Below are positions 50,241-64,000 of a DNA stretch of 64,000 nt, in pieces. How positions within the stretch are numbered: position 1 is the stretch's first letter; each line of letters begins with the position of its first letter. Position numbers and translations under genes: made by a program. Source of the DNA: a phage; NCBI GenBank assembly GCA_021525805.1, contig GCA_021525805.1_3940.1; one strand, written 5' to 3'. The notes beneath the pieces are model-generated. The model was not told the DNA's origin and searched no databases. It saw only the letters and a list, made by a program, of their open reading frames with translations.

Positions 50241-50474
50241 TCATAGCAACTCCAGAATATCAATACGTTCACCATTAAGAACACCTGTACGGTCTCTTGC
50301 AATCTTACCATCAACGATAAGGATATGCGCGACCTTTAAAGCCTCACGATTAAAACCTTTTAAGAACTTGCTAGGCATCACTACAATGGACATCTCCTGA
50401 ATCAACTCTGGAGTATAGCAATTGTCGTGAAGTTGCTGAATAACGTCTGCAAGTGTCATTTTTGATGTCTCCAA
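50241..50474 (-). CDS. hypothetical small protein
   Basis: 77-aa ORF. Confidence 0.45.
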   Translation of the reverse strand: METSKMTLADVIQQLHDNCYTPELIQEMSIVVMPSKFLKGFNREALKVAHILIVDGKIARDRTGVLNGERIDILELL

Positions 50475-50665
50475 TACTCAATATCAATAAGTTCTTGTGC
50501 AATGCTTTTCAGATTACCTTTCAAGAAAACCTTCTCAGAACCTGAAAGAGATGAATTGTCAATTAACCTGTTCATTCTCTCAAACAACTTCTGCTTACGA
50601 TTCTTGATAGTTTCCTTTGAAGCACCTTTCATCATCGCTGCATGGGTTCTTCCACGGTGACTCAT
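50456..50665 (-). CDS. hypothetical small basic protein
   Basis: 69-aa ORF. Confidence 0.45.
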   Translation of the reverse strand: MSHRGRTHAAMMKGASKETIKNRKQKLFERMNRLIDNSSLSGSEKVFLKGNLKSIAQELIDIEYWRHQK

Positions 50666-50716
50666 AAGTCCTCCTATACAAGATATAGTATAAGGTACTC
50701 TTCCCTGAGCACCTTG

Positions 50717-51250
50717 TCAACTTAGTTTTGCAAACTCTCCGTGGAGTTTGATAGCAGCTTCACAGTAAGCTTTATGGGCTTCTTCAGGGGTGTCATGGTG
50801 ACCTAAAAACATCTTCTTACCTTTATAACTTATCTGTGCGACCCACTTACCAGACTCCTTCTTAAGACTTACACCCTTGTACCCAGATTTATTGGTGACT
50901 GGTTTACCTTTATTCCAAGCACTTTGAAAGTCATCTGCTTCCCTTAAGTTTACAATCCTGTTGTCAAGTGAGTCTCCGTTGATATGGTCAATGATACCTT
51001 TTGGCATCTTGCCATACACGTAAAGCCATGCGAGTCTGTGTGCTTTATGTGCTTTCTTGCCAAAATAGATACTAATCTGTTTATGACCACTTGAATCAGT
51101 CTGGATATTACCTGCCACCTTTCCTGCATAATTACTGTTAAAAACACTAACAGCTCTTGATTTACCTTCTCTACGAAGCCAAGTAAAGACCCCTGTTTCG
51201 GGGTCATAGTGCAGCAGCTCCTTTAAACGTTTTTGTAAAATTAAATCCAT
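50717..51250 (-). CDS. HNH homing endonuclease with AP2-like DNA-binding domain
   Basis: 177 aa; HRLAWLYVYG ... DHINGDSLDNRIVNLR (HNH) then SGYKGVSLKKESGKWVAQISYKGKKMFLGHHDTPEEAHKAY (AP2-like). Confidence 0.8.
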   Translation of the reverse strand: MDLILQKRLKELLHYDPETGVFTWLRREGKSRAVSVFNSNYAGKVAGNIQTDSSGHKQISIYFGKKAHKAHRLAWLYVYGKMPKGIIDHINGDSLDNRIVNLREADDFQSAWNKGKPVTNKSGYKGVSLKKESGKWVAQISYKGKKMFLGHHDTPEEAHKAYCEAAIKLHGEFAKLS

Positions 51251-51253
51251 TAA

Positions 51254-53983
51254 TCAATGTACCTCCAACCAGCTCTTGCCAACCTTTGCTGTACCAGTTA
51301 CAAGTGTTTCTTTCCTCAAACCTAAGTTTTTTGAAGCTTGTCCATACATCCAGTCAGCAATTGCTTTCATATCCTGTGTCATACCCTCTGGACATTCCCA
51401 ACTATTTTCATCGTGATATGCCAGAAGTAACCTTGCTCCGATAGCTGGTTTTCGAGCATTCAGTTTTGTCAGGCCATCTTCACAGGCTTTTCTTGCTGCT
51501 AGGTTGATGGCCTCATTCTGAATCTGTGCTTCCGAACTCATCAGGAGGTAGTTCAGTAGTTTATGTGGAGATTTGCACCATATCCATGCTCCAGCGACCC
51601 TGATATAACCACCTTTAGCAATTGAAGAATTCTTCCCAAAAACCTCTTCCAGAGCCTTTTTAGACGCCTTAAAATCGGCTTCTAAGCTATCAAGTAACTT
51701 CTTAATCTTTGGCAGACGCATATAGTAAGTTTGTTTAGTCAATGCACCCTCTTCCGTAGATGATGCCTTGATAGTTTTTGCAAACTTCTCGTCTCCGGCT
51801 CCAAATAACAGGGCGTAGATGCCATTTTTGCTCTTCTTACGACCTTTTGTAATCTCGTGAAGAAGTTCCTCATCCTGTGTCTCCCTGCAACGAACAATAT
51901 CCTCTTCTTTGTTAAGACCAAAGTAAATACTGTTCAGTGTATGCGCATCAGTCCCTGTGTAGACTTCATAGAGGTCATTTTCAGCATCATAACGCAGATA
52001 CTTGTCAGTTTCTGGGTTAAGATACTTGTCAAGATGTTTACAGTAGTATCTACCATCATCTTGCTTAGTGAACTCCACTGACTCTTTACCCTCAGTTACC
52101 GCTTTAGTGAAGTCTTCATCACCCATAAAGTTACAAAGGAGAACTAGCTGGGCTGAGTTTTGGTCAACAGAAACAATGTTAGTCCCCTCTTCACAAATCC
52201 ACACTGCCCTCATAGGTGCTCCGTAGACAGCAGCACCAGACGGTACGTTTACAATACCATACTGTGTCATACGTCCAGTTGAAGTACCAAACACCATTGC
52301 ACCAGCACTAAGGCGACCATCAGGACGAATCTGGTTCAACCAACCTTTTTCATCATCCTTTGAGTTCTCAATAGTTCTGCGTCGGTGCATCAAAGTATAG
52401 TATTTAGCAATCTTCTGTCCAAGCTCACCTTCAATTGTATCATAAGATGATTCAGTAAGCTTTGGTGAAGTACGGATTAAGCAAGGCTCAAGCAAATCTG
52501 TGTATTTCTTCACAGACCAGTTATGCTCAATGTACTGTACACCTTCATGCTCAACATAGCTCAAACCACACCGCTCAACCATTTCCTGCCACTTAGGATG
52601 CTTTGTAATCATCTTTTTATTGTCTTTGAAACGACAAACCTTAACAGGACGACCATCTGAGTCTTTCTTGTAGTTCCAGTCATCTGGAATCCAACCAACT
52701 GATTTCAAGTAGTCTTTAACAACTGCTACCTGAGTCATACGAGAAACTTCGAACTCAATTGGTGTATATGGTGCATCAATCAAACCTGTGTAGCGACTTG
52801 ACTCAAGTTCAAAGTGATTGACAACGTGACTGTTATAGTACTTCACAGTCTTGACTGTTTTTACTGGTTTCCAGTCTTTGCATTTTTTGCCAATCTTTGC
52901 ATTCAACTCGTTGCAGATTGCACGAGCATCCTTCATTGCTACAAAGCCTTCCTTGTATTCTTCACCAGTTACAGTGTTGGTTGGCGTATAGCAATTCCTT
53001 TTTTCAATGTTAAAAATCTTTGTAGTTGGCTTACCAAATGGCTTGATTTCATATGTCTGCATCTCACCGTTACGTACCTGCTGACGATACTTTGTCTTAG
53101 GGTACTTGGTAATTCTTTTCAGTCCATCTGCATGACCGAATGTTTCAACATACTCATTCCAAGCTTTTGCAAACTCTTCTCCAGTGACTTTACCTTTGGT
53201 CTTAATAGTTGGAGGTAGATGTGGTTCAACCTCTGAAGCAAGCTCATTAGTCAACTTGTCAAGTTCCTTTACATGGAACTCCATAAGCTCTTTATCAGCT
53301 TTCCAGCCATTGATAGCTTGTTGACTCATCCAGAAAGATGTTTCTTTAGCTCGCATGTAGGTTTCATAAGTGTCTATGCCACACTTCTTAAGCTTGAGAT
53401 ATTCATTATCAAGTGCCCGTTTAGTTTTGGCGTTAATACGGATATCTTCTACAACACGAGTGAAGATTTCTGCATTCCACACACCCCAATGTTCAATCTC
53501 TGGTTTACGAACACCAACACGAGCACCCCATGCAGCCAAACCATGAGCACCTTTATAACCCTTTGGAGTTGGTCTATCCATCCACTGAACACGAGACTGG
53601 ATAAGAGAATCCTGAAAGAAATTACTCCACGGTTTACACTTTGGATTATCAAAGTTCCATAAATCAGGTGCAATGTGATTGAAAACCCACCAGTCATAAC
53701 CGAGGCCGTTATGGATGCAAAGTCGTTTTGCCTTTAACGCAAACTCAACACCTTCACGTAAACCACCCTTGATGTACTTAGTGTACTTGTGACCGAGGAT
53801 AGGCTCATCTGTAAAGACCCATACAGGTGGCTCTTCATCGTCAGATTTATAATCTGCGAAAGCCATTACGTGCACTTTAGTGAACTCAAGGAGTAAACCA
53901 TCAGTTTCTGTATCACCAACTAAATGTAAGTTTTTAAAATCTACGTTTTCCATTTTTACTCCCTCTAAAATCATTAACCTCAT
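51254..53983 (-). CDS. DNA polymerase, family A, with 3'-5' exonuclease domain
   Basis: 909 aa; N-terminal exo motif VGDTETDG; motif-B-like KKSKNGIYALLFGAG; motif-C-like LLLAYHDENSWECPEG. Confidence 0.8.
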   Translation of the reverse strand: MRLMILEGVKMENVDFKNLHLVGDTETDGLLLEFTKVHVMAFADYKSDDEEPPVWVFTDEPILGHKYTKYIKGGLREGVEFALKAKRLCIHNGLGYDWWVFNHIAPDLWNFDNPKCKPWSNFFQDSLIQSRVQWMDRPTPKGYKGAHGLAAWGARVGVRKPEIEHWGVWNAEIFTRVVEDIRINAKTKRALDNEYLKLKKCGIDTYETYMRAKETSFWMSQQAINGWKADKELMEFHVKELDKLTNELASEVEPHLPPTIKTKGKVTGEEFAKAWNEYVETFGHADGLKRITKYPKTKYRQQVRNGEMQTYEIKPFGKPTTKIFNIEKRNCYTPTNTVTGEEYKEGFVAMKDARAICNELNAKIGKKCKDWKPVKTVKTVKYYNSHVVNHFELESSRYTGLIDAPYTPIEFEVSRMTQVAVVKDYLKSVGWIPDDWNYKKDSDGRPVKVCRFKDNKKMITKHPKWQEMVERCGLSYVEHEGVQYIEHNWSVKKYTDLLEPCLIRTSPKLTESSYDTIEGELGQKIAKYYTLMHRRRTIENSKDDEKGWLNQIRPDGRLSAGAMVFGTSTGRMTQYGIVNVPSGAAVYGAPMRAVWICEEGTNIVSVDQNSAQLVLLCNFMGDEDFTKAVTEGKESVEFTKQDDGRYYCKHLDKYLNPETDKYLRYDAENDLYEVYTGTDAHTLNSIYFGLNKEEDIVRCRETQDEELLHEITKGRKKSKNGIYALLFGAGDEKFAKTIKASSTEEGALTKQTYYMRLPKIKKLLDSLEADFKASKKALEEVFGKNSSIAKGGYIRVAGAWIWCKSPHKLLNYLLMSSEAQIQNEAINLAARKACEDGLTKLNARKPAIGARLLLAYHDENSWECPEGMTQDMKAIADWMYGQASKNLGLRKETLVTGTAKVGKSWLEVH

Positions 53984-58901: not shown

Positions 58902-59759
58902 ATGTCTAAAGTTGTTAAAATGAAAGCTCCGGTAGAGAAGTACAACGGTACTGAACGTCAAACTCTGCGTTACCTTCTGAAAGATGTCTGGTTTTATTAC
59001 CTGAACACTTCACCACGTCCGGGAAAAGGTAAGTCTATTGATAAGAAATTTCCAGGCAAAGATTGTAACTACAGCGTATCAATTCTGGCAGAAGACGGTA
59101 ACAAACTGTTTAAAGAGTTTACTAAGTCTAAGAAAAATCCAGAAGGCTGGGATAAAGTCACTACTGAAGCAGTTGATGCAGACGACTTTGAAGAGAAGTT
59201 TGGTTGTAAACCACCTTTTGAAGCAGACACTTACTACATCTTGAAAGTAAGTCGTGCAGCAGCTTATAAAGATGGTGCTGTATGGACAGCTAAACAGTCA
59301 TTCCCTGTAATGCTGATTGAAGAAGTAAATGGTAAGCGTGTAGCTGTTAAGCAGCCGATGAAGAAAATCAAAGCTCAAGCATCTGACAAACACGAAGATG
59401 ACAAGAACTATGATGTAATTCATCCAGATATTGCAGTTGGTAACGGTTCTTTTGGTAGTGTGATTCTTTCTACTCACTTCTACACTTTTGAGAACAATGT
59501 TCTGACAAAACCTATTCAGGAACAGTTTATCATTGATACTCTTGTACCTTACACTGGTGGTAACGGTGCTAATGGTGAACCTGAACTGGATGAAGATGAA
59601 CTAGCTATGCTTGGTCTTGATGGTGTTGAAGATAACGGTGAAATCACTGAAGAAGACGCAACAGACCATAAATCTTCGAATGATTCTGATGATGGTGATG
59701 ATGAAGACTTGCCAGACCCAGATGACGAAGAAGATGAAGACTTCGATACAGAAGATTAA
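58902..59759 (+). CDS. putative single-stranded DNA-binding protein
   Basis: 285 aa with strongly acidic C-terminal tail DDEEDEDFDTED; position in replication block. Confidence 0.45.
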   Translation: MSKVVKMKAPVEKYNGTERQTLRYLLKDVWFYYLNTSPRPGKGKSIDKKFPGKDCNYSVSILAEDGNKLFKEFTKSKKNPEGWDKVTTEAVDADDFEEKFGCKPPFEADTYYILKVSRAAAYKDGAVWTAKQSFPVMLIEEVNGKRVAVKQPMKKIKAQASDKHEDDKNYDVIHPDIAVGNGSFGSVILSTHFYTFENNVLTKPIQEQFIIDTLVPYTGGNGANGEPELDEDELAMLGLDGVEDNGEITEEDATDHKSSNDSDDGDDEDLPDPDDEEDEDFDTED

Positions 59760-59820
59760 TCTCTAAAGTTACTTTAAAGCCCTGTACTCCGTATGGGGCT
59801 TTTTCATATGGAGAGCCATA

Positions 59821-60867
59821 ATGGAGAAGTACACATTAACAAAACTTCCCGATTCAGTTACACATGTTTTTATTGACTCTGACAGTATTGCCTATAAAGG
59901 TGCTTGTGTAGTTGAGAAAGCAAAGTATAAATATGTCAATAAACTCACAGCAGAAGAGTCTGAACCATTTGATAATGCGAAAGATGCTGCAAGATGGTTA
60001 GCAGACCAGAGAATCCTTGTGGAAGAGCTTGGCCTGACATTTGATGAAGATGAATGGGAAAGACAGACTTGGAAAGAAGCTAAGAGTGAAAAAGAAGCTA
60101 TCATGGCTACTCAACAGGTGCTTCAGGAATGGCTTAAGGTTGTTGGTAAAGAAAGAACTTGGGTAGGTTATTTAACAGAGAAGGGTGTGCATAAACATAA
60201 AGACATTAAAGGTCTTGAGCACCAATATCAAGGTAATCGTAAAGATGCTGTCACACCAACACACTTAGTTGCTTGTCGTGAGTATCTTCTGTCAAGACCA
60301 GAGTTCAAATTGATTCTTGATGGATTTGAAGCTGACTCTATCGTAATTGCTAAAGCTGAAAAGATGGGTAAAAAGGCTGCCTTAATGAGTATTGATAAAG
60401 ACCTTCGACAAGCTGAAGGGACTTACTGTATTGATATGACTTATGAAAAGTCGCCTTTGATTTTCATTGCTGATAACAACGTTGGTGAAATTTGGGATTG
60501 TCCAATAAAATCGACACCAAAAGCTAAGAAGACAGTTGGGGTAGGTTTTAAATTTCTTTGTTACCAAGCTGTGGCTGGTGATAATGCGGATAACTATTTT
60601 GGTTTAAAGGGCGTTGGTAAGGCTGCTGTAATGAAAGCCCTTGAAGGTAAAACTACTTACAAAGAGTGTCTTGATGCTATCTATGAACTTTATGCTAAGA
60701 AAGAGTCATACACTTATGTCTCGTGGGATGGTCAAACAATTACCAGAACACCTTTAGAGTTAATGCAGCAACACTTTTTCTTAGCTTATCAGGAAAGAAA
60801 CAAGAAAGACGATTTTACTTTTGATAAGTATGGGTGGACACCAAATGTTAACTCAACAAACTCTTAA
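59821..60867 (+). CDS. 5'-3' exonuclease / flap endonuclease (FEN, RNase H-like)
   Basis: 348 aa; Asp-rich N-terminus VFIDSDSIAY; helix-hairpin-helix-like AGDNADNYFGLKGVGKAAVMKAL. Confidence 0.6.
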   Translation: MEKYTLTKLPDSVTHVFIDSDSIAYKGACVVEKAKYKYVNKLTAEESEPFDNAKDAARWLADQRILVEELGLTFDEDEWERQTWKEAKSEKEAIMATQQVLQEWLKVVGKERTWVGYLTEKGVHKHKDIKGLEHQYQGNRKDAVTPTHLVACREYLLSRPEFKLILDGFEADSIVIAKAEKMGKKAALMSIDKDLRQAEGTYCIDMTYEKSPLIFIADNNVGEIWDCPIKSTPKAKKTVGVGFKFLCYQAVAGDNADNYFGLKGVGKAAVMKALEGKTTYKECLDAIYELYAKKESYTYVSWDGQTITRTPLELMQQHFFLAYQERNKKDDFTFDKYGWTPNVNSTNS

Positions 60868-61336
60868 AGAGTACCTACATTATGACCCCGAAACAGGGGT
60901 CTTTACTTGGATTAAGAAGTCTGCTAGACACACAAAAATTGGCTCTGTTGCAGGTACAAATTTAAAAGGTTACACCAGAATTTATTTGTTTGGTAAGGGC
61001 TATTATGCACATACACTAGCTGTTCTGTATATGGATGGTTACCTCCCTGAGTGTGTTGACCATAAAAATCATGTAACACTAGATAACCGCTGGGTAAATC
61101 TTAGAGCATGTACGTTATCAGAGAACCAATGTAATAGATTGCTCAATAAGAACAATAAATCAGGTGTTAAAGGTGTGTACTACAAAAAACAGTATGGTAA
61201 GTGGTCTACACAGATAACTTTTAAGAAGAGGGTCTACTTCTTCGGCAACTATGACACTATTGATGAAGCAGCAGAGGTTGTAAATAGGGAACGTCAACGT
61301 TTACACAAAGAGTTTGCTAATAAAGGTGATGAATGA
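60845..61336 (+). CDS. HNH homing endonuclease with AP2-like domain (start refined from track ORF 60821..61336)
   Basis: paralogous to 50717..51250 (LHYDPETGVFTW ... DHKNHVTLDNRWVNLR ... SGVKGVYYKKQYGKWSTQITFKKRVYFFGNYDTIDEAAE); ATG at 60845 has GGTGGA RBS. Confidence 0.75.
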   Translation: MLTQQTLKEYLHYDPETGVFTWIKKSARHTKIGSVAGTNLKGYTRIYLFGKGYYAHTLAVLYMDGYLPECVDHKNHVTLDNRWVNLRACTLSENQCNRLLNKNNKSGVKGVYYKKQYGKWSTQITFKKRVYFFGNYDTIDEAAEVVNRERQRLHKEFANKGDE

Positions 61337-61833
61337 GAAAAATAAAAGGTTTTGGCAATTGCCCTGAATATGGACATTGGGTTTCACTATGTGGTGAAGT
61401 TGACCCAGCAAAGCACTTTGGTTTTGTCTACCTAGTGTACTGCAAAAAGACTGGACAGTACTATTTGGGTAAGAAACAGTTTAATAGCGTGACCAAAAGA
61501 AAAGTTGCTGGTAAGACTCGGAAGAAGGTAGTCACTAAGGAGAGTGATTGGATGACTTATGAGACTTCTTCTGAGTATATTAAAAAAGATATTGAGAGCT
61601 TTGGAAAAGAATTTTTTGACTTTTACATTATCCAGACCTACTACACAAAAGGTGGCCTAGTCTATGGTGAAGCAAACCTTCAACATAAATTCGATGTAAT
61701 GACAAAAAGGATTGACTCGAAGCTCAGACTCTTCTACAATGCCAATATTGCAGCAATTAAGTTTATTACTAAAGAAACTTATGAAGATGCTGAAAAAAGA
61801 ATCCATAAGGTAATGAAAGCAAATCGTGCTTGA
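61333..61833 (+). CDS. putative GIY-YIG-like homing endonuclease
   Basis: 166 aa; GFVYLVYCKKTGQYYLGKK resembles GIY...YIG motif. Confidence 0.45.
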   Translation: MRKIKGFGNCPEYGHWVSLCGEVDPAKHFGFVYLVYCKKTGQYYLGKKQFNSVTKRKVAGKTRKKVVTKESDWMTYETSSEYIKKDIESFGKEFFDFYIIQTYYTKGGLVYGEANLQHKFDVMTKRIDSKLRLFYNANIAAIKFITKETYEDAEKRIHKVMKANRA

Positions 61834-61854
61834 TAACTATTGAGAGAGAATAAA

Positions 61855-62103
61855 ATGTTTAACAAAAGTAAAGCTGTGAGCCATGTAGCAAAAGTTGACA
61901 GCAAGATTGAAGAACTTGAGCGCATTCTTGCAAATGCTAAAGAGTCAATAATTAAAGAAGTTGAAGCTGTTGAATCTCAAATGCAGCACCTAATGCTTAA
62001 ACGTCAAGAGCTACGTGAGCATCTAGAATATATTGAAACACGAGAGCTAAAGGTTAACAAATATTTTAAGGAGTCCGAATGTTTAACTCAAGAGAATCAG
62101 TAA
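61855..62103 (+). CDS. hypothetical coiled-coil protein (start refined from track ORF 61840..62103)
   Basis: ATG at 61855 follows AGAGAG RBS-like run. Confidence 0.45.
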   Translation: MFNKSKAVSHVAKVDSKIEELERILANAKESIIKEVEAVESQMQHLMLKRQELREHLEYIETRELKVNKYFKESECLTQENQ

Positions 62104-62834
62104 AAAACTGGAACCTTCGTTGTGGAAACACTCAAAAGCAACCTTACAGTGATGAGTATTGGGAATCTTTAAAATCTCAATCTCTGTGTATGCTTGAAGA
62201 AGCAAAAGAGCTTGTAAAAGCAATTGAAGAGAAAGACCCCATTGAGACACTGGATGCTCAGGCGGATTTGCAATATGTTCTTGACGGTTTGATTTATCTG
62301 TCACAACATGACCATAACGGCGCTATGAAAGCTGTTTGCCATAATAATGACCTGAAGTACACAGATGACTATGAAGAAGCTTTAAAACGTCTTGCAGACA
62401 TTGAAAAGCGTACTGGTCAAGAGTGTATTATCAGAATGTCAGCAGTTGATGGTAAAGAGTGGTATGCGATTGTTCGTGCAGCCGATGGGAAGATTATGAA
62501 GCAATCAAATCTCCCTAAAGTACAGCTTGGTGAATACATTGTAGAGCTTGAAAGCCAAGAACTTTTTGTGGTAGTATCTGAGACATGCGTTATCTGCAAA
62601 GGTATTGTAGGTAGCTTAAAGGATTTGGGTGTAGATGGTTTTGTAGAAGTTAATCCAATTACCTCTAAAGCAGATAAAGACTTCTGTAAAGAGAACGGAC
62701 TATGGATTGCAGATATTGTCTACTATGATGGTGAGCAGTTCCATGTAACCTCATACCCGAAACTGAATTATGATGCTAATAACCTGAAGTGCTGGTTAAA
62801 AGGGGTTGGTTATAATGGATTCACAGAACATTAA
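62079..62834 (+). CDS. hypothetical protein
   Basis: 251-aa ORF. Confidence 0.55.
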   Translation: MFNSRESVKNWNLRCGNTQKQPYSDEYWESLKSQSLCMLEEAKELVKAIEEKDPIETLDAQADLQYVLDGLIYLSQHDHNGAMKAVCHNNDLKYTDDYEEALKRLADIEKRTGQECIIRMSAVDGKEWYAIVRAADGKIMKQSNLPKVQLGEYIVELESQELFVVVSETCVICKGIVGSLKDLGVDGFVEVNPITSKADKDFCKENGLWIADIVYYDGEQFHVTSYPKLNYDANNLKCWLKGVGYNGFTEH

Positions 62835-63138
62835 TAAAGAGGGTGTGGCTCAGAAGAGCCACTTCTCAAACTACAATATTTCTATGACGGTGTTTATGAA
62901 TGACCCGTTACTAGAAAAATATGGTGAGACTCCAGATACACTTCTGGACAATGAACAAGTTTTAAAAGCAGTCCTGTACAAATACGGGATTGATATTGAG
63001 AAAGAGTATTCCTTTGAAATCTGCCAACACAGGAATACTTTCGGTAAAGTTGTGATGGCTCCACTCTTTATGGGTGTAGAAAGGACTGACTATGGTTGGT
63101 TGTATCTAAAAAGAAACTTGGAGAAATACCGTGTCTAA
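62806..63138 (+). CDS. hypothetical protein
   Basis: 110-aa ORF. Confidence 0.5.
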   Translation: MVIMDSQNINKEGVAQKSHFSNYNISMTVFMNDPLLEKYGETPDTLLDNEQVLKAVLYKYGIDIEKEYSFEICQHRNTFGKVVMAPLFMGVERTDYGWLYLKRNLEKYRV

Positions 63139-63469
63139 AGCAAAAAAGCTATCTTATGATGACATTATCTCAGGTGTTAAGCTAGGTGTTGACAGCATCG
63201 GACAAGACGTTAAGCACGGAGACACAGTTATGTACTGTGATGACCGAAGAGGTAGAAGTGCAATCTTGTTTGGAAGAGTTGTCTGCAAGATGCGAGGTAA
63301 TTACGTTGTTGCAGACATGGATGTGAACGTTACACAAAAACTTGAAACAATTATGGATGATAATACATCATCATGGTTCTCCCTGAATTGTATGCACACT
63401 TCTTCAGTCACAAAGGTAAGTGATAAGTTTTACGATATGTGGCAGAATGAGCAAATTTTCAAGATTTAA
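63131..63469 (+). CDS. hypothetical protein
   Basis: 112-aa ORF. Confidence 0.5.
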   Translation: MSKAKKLSYDDIISGVKLGVDSIGQDVKHGDTVMYCDDRRGRSAILFGRVVCKMRGNYVVADMDVNVTQKLETIMDDNTSSWFSLNCMHTSSVTKVSDKFYDMWQNEQIFKI

Positions 63470-63474
63470 ACTAG

Positions 63475-63500
63475 GGAGCCTCTTCGGAGGCTCTTTTCAT
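63475..63500 (+). terminator. putative rho-independent terminator
   Basis: GGGAGCCTC-TTCG-GAGGCTC followed by TTTT. Confidence 0.55.
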
Positions 63501-63516
63501 CTGTAGGATTCAAAAA

Positions 63517-64000
63517 TGATTAAGACAATTAAAAAATCAAATGGTACAGTAGTAAGCTTTGACCCAGAAAGACTGAATAAATGGGCATCATGGGCAGATA
63601 AGCGTGGAATTATCTGGTCAGAAGTCACTATGGAAGCCATGAAACGTGTCTATGAGGGTTGCACTACAAAAGAGATGCACCAAGCCATGATTGATGTTTG
63701 TGTTGATAAACAAACTCAAGAGTACTCAGATATGGCTGGACGACTGCTTTTGGGTATTATCTACAAAGAAGCCTTTGGGGGCTTTACTAAGGTTCCTACG
63801 CTGGTTACCTTCGTTAAAAACATGGAGAGGGCGGGACTTTGGGAGAAGATGGACTATTCACAGGAAGAGCTTGAATACCTGCAAGGTTACATCGTACACT
63901 CAAAAGATATCTCTTACGGTTATGCAGTCTTGAAACAGTTCAGAGACAAGTATGGTATCCGTGATATTAAAACGGGAAGACTTTTTGAGTCGCCGCAATT
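63517..64000 (+). CDS. nrdA: ribonucleoside-diphosphate reductase alpha subunit, 5' part (3'-partial at window end)
   Basis: not in ORF track because no stop within window; ATG 63517 after AGGATTCAAAAATG; ATP-cone-like start IKTIKKSNGTVVSFDPERL and NrdA-like downstream pattern (YSDMAGRLLLGIIYKEAFGG ... ISYGYAVLKQFRDKYGIRD). Confidence 0.65.

Follow-up and report, generated by a model that had tools for sequence, protein, structure and literature searches.

We analysed two neighbouring open reading frames (ORFs), at 60845-61336 and 61333-61833, in a 64,000-nucleotide stretch of phage DNA (contig GCA_021525805.1_3940.1 of assembly GCA_021525805.1), hereafter the window. Both follow a gene for a 5'-3' exonuclease of the flap endonuclease-like type. 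The first is probably a free-standing HNH homing endonuclease gene that was inserted at this site, and the second, a GIY-YIG gene, a fixed core nuclease gene that is not mobile in the Ounavirinae. The stretch from 59000 to 64000 matched 259 records. Its identity was 98% with Escherichia phage pinkbiff and 92-97% with over 200 Felix O1-like phages, which places the window, by sequence, in Felixounavirus (Ounavirinae). The features referred to below are as follows.

59821-60867, plus strand: 5'-3' exonuclease (flap endonuclease-like) gene; PHROG 107 exonuclease, E 5.9e-66, with weak Pfam 5_3_exonuc matches
60833-60838, plus strand: GGTGGA Shine-Dalgarno sequence for the HNH start, read from the sequence and lying inside the exonuclease gene
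60843-61326, plus strand: segment absent from empty-slot phages, approximately 484 bp, from junction comparison with Alf5 and humlepung; boundaries approximate
60845-61336, plus strand: HNH_3 and probable AP2 free-standing homing endonuclease gene, allele A, 163 residues, from Pfam and PHROG 99
60881-60910, plus strand: 30-nt block TATGACCCCGAAACAGGGGTCTTTACTTGG, coding for YDPETGVFTW, found in a scan for terminator-like sequences
61333-61833, plus strand: SegE-type GIY-YIG nuclease gene, nuclease domain only (approximately 61396-61749), 166 residues, counterpart of Felix O1 ORF107
50717-51250, minus strand: paralogous HNH_3 and AP2 gene that immediately follows the DNA polymerase gene (51254-53983), from Pfam and alignment

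The HNH gene and its slot

The ORF at 60845-61336 matched the HNH_3 family of Pfam above its cut-off (E 1.5e-11) and, over its full length, PHROG 99, 'HNH endonuclease' (E 6e-69). Its AP2 match scored 20.8 bits (E 4.7e-4) against a cut-off of 33.3. The paralogue at 50717-51250 scored 46.3 bits for AP2 and aligned with the ORF over the same region, and an AP2-type DNA-binding domain is probably present, though under the curated threshold. The HNH motif spans approximately 61001-61129, with D72-H73 encoded at 61058-61063, and the AP2-like domain approximately 61160-61276. In an alignment of the three slot alleles described below with the paralogue, residues D72, H73, D80-N81, N85-L86-R87 and N97 were invariant. 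The protein is identical to gp109 of pinkbiff and 90% identical to gp82 of Sf14.

An initial annotation, made from the window's sequence, had called this ORF a paralogue of the HNH-AP2 gene at 50717 that overlaps the 3' end of the exonuclease gene. Alignment bore out the paralogy (42% identity over 172 residues, E 2e-39), and a tblastn search revealed no third copy in the window. The overlap is also real: the exonuclease stop codon occupies 60865-60867, 23 nt into the HNH ORF. The ATG at 60845 sits within a longer ORF beginning at TTG 60821, and either TTG 60821 or ATG 60830 is given as the start codon in other records. Since the GGTGGA Shine-Dalgarno sequence lies 6 nt 5' of ATG 60845, we favoured the latter as the start.

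The HNH gene was absent from many close relatives. In empty-site phages such as Alf5 and humlepung, the end of the exonuclease gene directly overlaps the start of the GIY-YIG-like gene, by 11 nt, in a junction that includes TTTAAGAAATATAATTGGGAGCCGTGTATGAATGAAGATTAAAGG. Using a 95-nt probe, we found the empty junction in 166 records at a match of at least 80% of its length. The filled left junction was found in 69 records at a coverage of at least 80% and in a further group at 79%, for a total of about 90, as estimated by proportion in an evenly spaced sample. The empty and filled counts together are consistent with the 259 records noted above. Both states occur within one species, pinkbiff being filled and Alf5 empty. 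The presence/absence and allele polymorphism seen on comparing synteny thus upheld the earlier view of this gene as a homing endonuclease.

Among occupied sites, the slot held at least three alleles, two of them only 56-57% identical to that of the window, within flanks that were about 97% identical. Allele A was carried by the window, pinkbiff, VpaE1, HY02 and Sf14 (90% amino acid identity), allele B by Felix O1 (57% amino acid identity to the window) and allele C by wV8 (56%). Between the window and Felix O1, synonymous divergence (dS) was 1.68 in the HNH gene and 0.07-0.20 in the exonuclease, GIY-YIG and MazG genes, a difference by which the alleles are read as swapped in and not diverged in place. 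The ratio of nonsynonymous to synonymous divergence (dN/dS) of the HNH gene was 0.05 within allele A and 0.14-0.25 between alleles, indicating purifying selection. In VpaE1 the slot is occupied by allele A, and in the record 'VpaE1_ev78' it is empty; recombination or loss at the slot between closely related stocks could explain this.

The second HNH slot, after the DNA polymerase gene (50400-51600), was also polymorphic. This region was covered to at least 80% in 56 of 299 records. The slot was empty in some, such as LinBro, AYO145A and CL1, in which the match spanned approximately 673 bp vs 1201, and other records, including Felix O1, held a different HNH allele without the conserved 30-nt block.

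The boundaries of the insertion were defined by anchored, ungapped comparisons with empty-site phages. The HNH gene is inserted exactly between the exonuclease and GIY-YIG genes, and the inserted segment, approximately 60843-61326, provides the downstream gene with an AGGTGA ribosome-binding site and with an ATGA stop/start overlap, in which the ATG of the GIY-YIG gene overlaps the HNH stop codon. The last ~14 codons of the exonuclease gene, from approximately 60821, are an HNH-associated variant, ending in DKYGWTPNVNSTNS before the stop codon in the window vs KKYNWEPCMNED in empty-slot phages. The C-terminus in the window, Felix O1, wV8 and Sf14 conforms to (D/E)KYGWTPN(V/A)(N/D)S(T/A)(N/D)(S/T). 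The GGTGGA Shine-Dalgarno sequence lies within this differing stretch. Along the exonuclease gene, mismatches to humlepung numbered 0-3 per 30 nt, rising to 14 of 30 in 60821-60850. On the right flank, they numbered 5-6 per 30 nt in the 90 nt at the start of the GIY-YIG gene, with 0-2 beyond. Divergence that is localized to the junctions in this way fits short co-conversion tracts or protective changes to the target site.

These data suggest how the insert may spread. Upon mixed infection with an empty-slot relative, the HNH enzyme would cut near the junction of the exonuclease 3' end and the GIY-YIG 5' end, a target placed by the pattern of divergence. Repair from the HNH-carrying genome would then copy the gene with a short stretch on either side, about 25 nt on the left and about 90-150 nt on the right. 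In carriers, the site is already disrupted by the insert and the clustered substitutions, which would protect these genomes. The insert comes with a ribosome-binding site for the HNH gene itself, replaces the 3' tail of the exonuclease gene and includes the downstream ribosome-binding site with the ATGA overlap, so that expression of the neighbours would be kept. The gene was also considered as a terminase-associated nuclease; this was rejected, as it is optional and distant from the terminase gene.

The GIY-YIG protein and its gene

The ORF at 61333-61833 matched the Pfam family PF19835 (SegE_GIY-YIG) with an E of 2.7e-27 and 95.9 bits against a cut-off of 25, over positions 10-123 of the 123 in the profile. 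The GIY...YIG-like motif that had been noticed in this ORF is therefore genuine: its GFVY and YYLGKK elements correspond to the family-invariant residues G30/Y33 and Y44/G46/K48. Searching 1.84 billion representative proteins with a family profile returned 2817 relatives of bimodal length, about 130-190 and 230-360 residues. An alignment of 145 members contained ten invariant positions (G30, Y33, Y44, G46, K48, W73, Y76, S79, E113 and N136), all of which are retained in the window protein. Together, these matches put the ORF, by sequence, in the SegE branch of the GIY-YIG nucleases.

The initial annotation had singled out the conserved catalytic Arg and Glu as the residues on which a GIY-YIG assignment turns. 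In I-TevI, the catalytic set comprises R27, the metal-binding E75 and N90. Only part of this check counts against the assignment: E113 and N136 are invariant, but no conserved Arg could be placed, and the family has the invariant Lys48 instead. More specifically, the 145-member alignment contained no invariant Arg, and position 47 was always Lys or Arg. Sequence searches with either the ORF or the 145-sequence profile as query yielded no relevant match to solved GIY-YIG enzymes, and NCBIfam contained no match for either nuclease. An hhalign comparison with I-TevI, whose sequence was verified against the Protein Data Bank (PDB), was weak (probability 20%); it aligned the GIY, YIG and serine motifs, and R27 of I-TevI fell in a family-specific β-hairpin. 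Only a fold search connected the ORF to GIY-YIG enzymes, its predicted model adopting the GIY-YIG fold.

PF19835 was the sole Pfam domain in the protein, and no DNA-binding domain was found: only ~27 residues, forming one helix, follow the nuclease domain. Elsewhere in the family, NUMOD3 occurred in 52 of the 145 members, and others contained NUMOD1, I-HmuI-NUMOD or HTH domains.

The gene was present in 298 records, vs 299 for the polymerase region. It was syntenic and overlapped the exonuclease gene in Felixounavirus, Mooglevirus and Kolesnikvirus, and it held the same exonuclease-overlapping position in an 88-kb metagenomic relative. The GIY-YIG protein was the best conserved of its neighbourhood in comparison with Kolesnikvirus, with an amino acid identity of 60-61%, vs 55% for the exonuclease, 47% for p3877, 38-39% for MazG and 21% for p4442. 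Its dN/dS of 0.05-0.16 indicates purifying selection. By sequence, then, the gene is fixed, vertically inherited, selectively maintained and limited to the nuclease domain.

Once a homing endonuclease gene is fixed, every site that it could invade is occupied, and the gene is expected to decay. The GIY-YIG gene is fixed yet has not decayed, being under purifying selection; its product is therefore best read as a nuclease that is core to the subfamily and that may descend from a homing endonuclease. We infer that the protein is a DNA endonuclease with little or no specificity for a long site, working with the co-translated 5'-3' exonuclease. Its possible roles are the breakdown of host DNA for nucleotide salvage or the trimming of replication or recombination intermediates.

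Domain-only SegE-type relatives of 130-180 residues in unrelated phages were likewise encoded directly 3' of an exonuclease gene, often overlapping it, and the upstream exonuclease belonged to either of two unrelated families. A Cas4-domain exonuclease (PHROG 1990) was confirmed by PHROG at locus L011 (5174-6402) and, among the viral-contig loci listed for this adjacency (L049, L051-L055, L057, L058, L060, L061 and L075), at L049, L051, L055, L057, L058 and L075; five further viral-contig loci were put in this group by inference, as the size of the ORF upstream is the same. A flap endonuclease-like exonuclease (PHROG 107) was confirmed by scan at L081 and is given by the GenBank annotation at L110 (DSS3_PM1, 88-1174); L083 and L093 were put in this group by the same inference from ORF size. 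Other domain-only relatives occurred just before a family-A DNA polymerase gene or after a nucleoside deoxyribosyltransferase-like gene. That such genes repeatedly adjoin exonuclease genes of two non-homologous kinds hints at a partnership of endonuclease and exonuclease; the evidence is weak, because homing endonuclease genes also prefer exonuclease and polymerase neighbourhoods. In the window, the adjacent exonuclease is probably the working partner of the GIY-YIG enzyme.

In T4-like cyanophages (about 400 records), we observed a homologue that was 30-37% identical and held a conserved position in the genome.

Mobile, fixed or inactive

The initial annotation had counted the GIY-YIG ORF as the third homing endonuclease within the replication block. 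We weighed the corresponding explanation, in which the HNH and GIY-YIG genes are both active homing endonuclease genes, arranged as a tandem island, and with the 50717 gene make three mobile elements, and consider it unlikely. It draws on the family's being named after the T4 homing endonuclease SegE, on the intact state of all family-invariant residues, on the name that GenBank annotators gave the gene, 'GIY-YIG homing endonuclease', and on the location of its relatives next to conserved replication genes, as is usual for homing endonuclease genes. However, about 298 Ounavirinae records across genera contained no presence/absence polymorphism of the GIY-YIG gene, which is conserved above its neighbours and maintained by purifying selection where a fixed homing gene should decay. 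Moreover, the protein lacks the module for binding a long DNA target that many longer family members possess. The count of three consequently holds for the two polymorphic HNH genes and fails for the third, which is read as one core nuclease. A GIY-YIG-like protein that is catalytically inactive and kept for a non-nuclease role, for instance to bind DNA or to regulate or structurally support the exonuclease, could explain why the canonical position has no conserved Arg and why neither the protein nor its family profile detected solved GIY-YIG enzymes by sequence. We judged this very improbable, as the metal-binding Glu (E113), N136, both motif Tyr residues and Lys48 are kept in 145 of 145 members, including those with NUMOD3 or HTH domains, DNA-binding modules that are typical of homing endonucleases. 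In addition, endonuclease activity was reported for the family's namesake, T4 SegE (Kadyrov et al. 1997, cited in PMC10448857).

For the HNH gene, the alternative is that it is no longer mobile and serves as an accessory nuclease, in competitor exclusion or DNA metabolism, its patchy occurrence reflecting an ancient insertion followed by repeated loss. Such a history would account for allele A of Mooglevirus Sf14, which has diverged about as much as the backbone, and is compatible with the purifying selection on all three alleles; domesticated homing endonuclease genes are also documented in other phages (PMC10448857). We nevertheless find it quite improbable given the presence and absence of the gene within a single species, the three deeply diverged alleles within near-identical backbones and the sharp confinement of flank divergence to the junction. 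Moreover, marker exclusion and homing can coexist.

Four observations weigh against the explanation that we favour, an inserted homing gene beside a core nuclease gene. The canonical catalytic Arg, R27 of I-TevI, could not be mapped onto the GIY-YIG protein in the weak hhalign comparison. The dS of allele A in Sf14 was 1.24, vs 1.3-1.8 for the backbone; therefore, part of the HNH distribution may reflect old occupancy plus losses rather than recent homing. The adjacency to exonuclease or polymerase genes is also expected from the insertion preference of homing endonucleases. Finally, only a 78-nt coding sequence is annotated in the homologous stretch of Synechococcus phage Syn19 (L109, 3001-3342). 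This copy may have decayed; if so, the family is not core everywhere, and its status may differ between lineages. For this reason, we dropped the generalization that the GIY-YIG gene is a core gene wherever it occurs.

A broader possibility, which we hold tentatively and think doubtful as it stands, is that domain-only SegE-type proteins (PHROG 447) are homing nuclease domains that were domesticated in several lineages as housekeeping endonucleases with an obligate exonuclease partner. Were this so, the partner would be flap endonuclease-like in the Ounavirinae and Naomviridae and of the Cas4 type in a group of ~43-kb phages, and the joint task would be the breakdown of host DNA or the processing of replication or recombination intermediates.

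Known systems, annotation and a conserved block

The HNH-AP2 family of phage homing endonucleases was reportedly described by Magnani and colleagues in 2004. Like its members, the 60845 gene encodes an N-terminal HNH_3 nuclease and, probably, a C-terminal AP2-type DNA-binding domain, stands free between conserved replication genes and is polymorphic among close relatives. We detected no substantive difference from the family; in the window allele, the AP2 match is under the Pfam cut-off. On these features, the gene is classed as a typical HNH-AP2 free-standing homing endonuclease.

The GIY-YIG ORF resembles T4 SegE and other Seg-type enzymes in belonging to the same nuclease-domain family and in containing all family-invariant residues. 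It lacks two features that define the Seg type, the DNA-binding module and optional presence: unlike Seg-type enzymes, it has no C-terminal DNA-binding region, which in some relatives is a zinc-finger-like CxxC...HxxxC tail, and unlike optional Seg-type genes, it is fixed and syntenic across the whole subfamily. Compared to the catalytic domain of I-TevI (PDB 1LN0/1MK0), with which it shares only 13% sequence identity, the protein has a β-hairpin insert (residues ~51-70) at the place of R27 and three extra N-terminal strands, and has neither linker nor DNA-binding domain.

In T4, EndoII (DenA) initiates the breakdown of host DNA, and T7 pairs the endonuclease gp3 with the exonuclease gp6 to the same end. 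EndoII (PDB 2WSH) is similar to the GIY-YIG ORF in architecture, the sequence relationship being undetectable, and the analogy is functional only. The same holds for the T7 pair, as the fold of gp3 differs from that of the GIY-YIG protein. In Felix O1, the GIY-YIG gene follows and overlaps an exonuclease gene labelled '6', and no resolvase or host-DNA endonuclease is annotated in that genome. The GIY-YIG protein, perhaps a domesticated homing domain, is thus among the few candidate endonucleases of a phage without an annotated enzyme of either kind.

Both genes were already known from public genomes, and the HNH gene has also been published. The GenBank record of pinkbiff names them 'HNH homing endonuclease' and 'GIY-YIG homing endonuclease'. 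Their counterparts in Felix O1 are labelled 'HNH endonuclease' (ORF106) and 'NAD synthetase' (ORF107) in RefSeq. The 2010 genome paper on that phage (PMC3185647) reported six HNH homing-endonuclease-like genes, ORF106 among them.

The label 'NAD synthetase' appears on ORF107, in many GenBank records and on PHROG 447. It is unsupported, the only Pfam match being SegE_GIY-YIG, and the misnomer seems to have been passed on from record to record, those of T4-like cyanophages included. We conclude that this label is wrong and that 'GIY-YIG homing endonuclease' overstates mobility. The exonuclease/GIY-YIG junction and the site downstream of the polymerase gene are likely hot spots of gene conversion and are best omitted from phylogenies of therapeutic Felix O1-like phages. 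The present understanding of homing endonucleases is unchanged by these results, the region being an ordinary one.

The 30-nt block TATGACCCCGAAACAGGGGTCTTTACTTGG near the start of the HNH gene contains a GC-rich hairpin, GACCCC-GAAACA-GGGGTC (60884-60901), followed by a T-run. An identical block occurs in the paralogue (51179-51208, minus strand), despite the 42% protein identity of the two genes. Of the copies in alleles A, B and C and in HNH1, 15 of 18 were identical and 3 of 18 differed by one base. The block is conserved at synonymous sites, and synonymous divergence in the rest of the three alleles is saturated. This conservation points to a constraint at the nucleotide level, such as an attenuator or RNA structure, or to gene conversion, but the z-score of the RNA fold is only -1.9. 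On this score, the hairpin was considered as a terminator and rejected. An exact 26-mer of the block occurred in IMG/VR only in contigs of Ounavirinae (14 stretches).

Records of Campylobacter phages A126 and A132 and of Staphylococcus phage SA1 also contain Felix O1-like sequence with 92-97% identity. These entries are probably mixed or contaminated database records and do not reflect the true host range.

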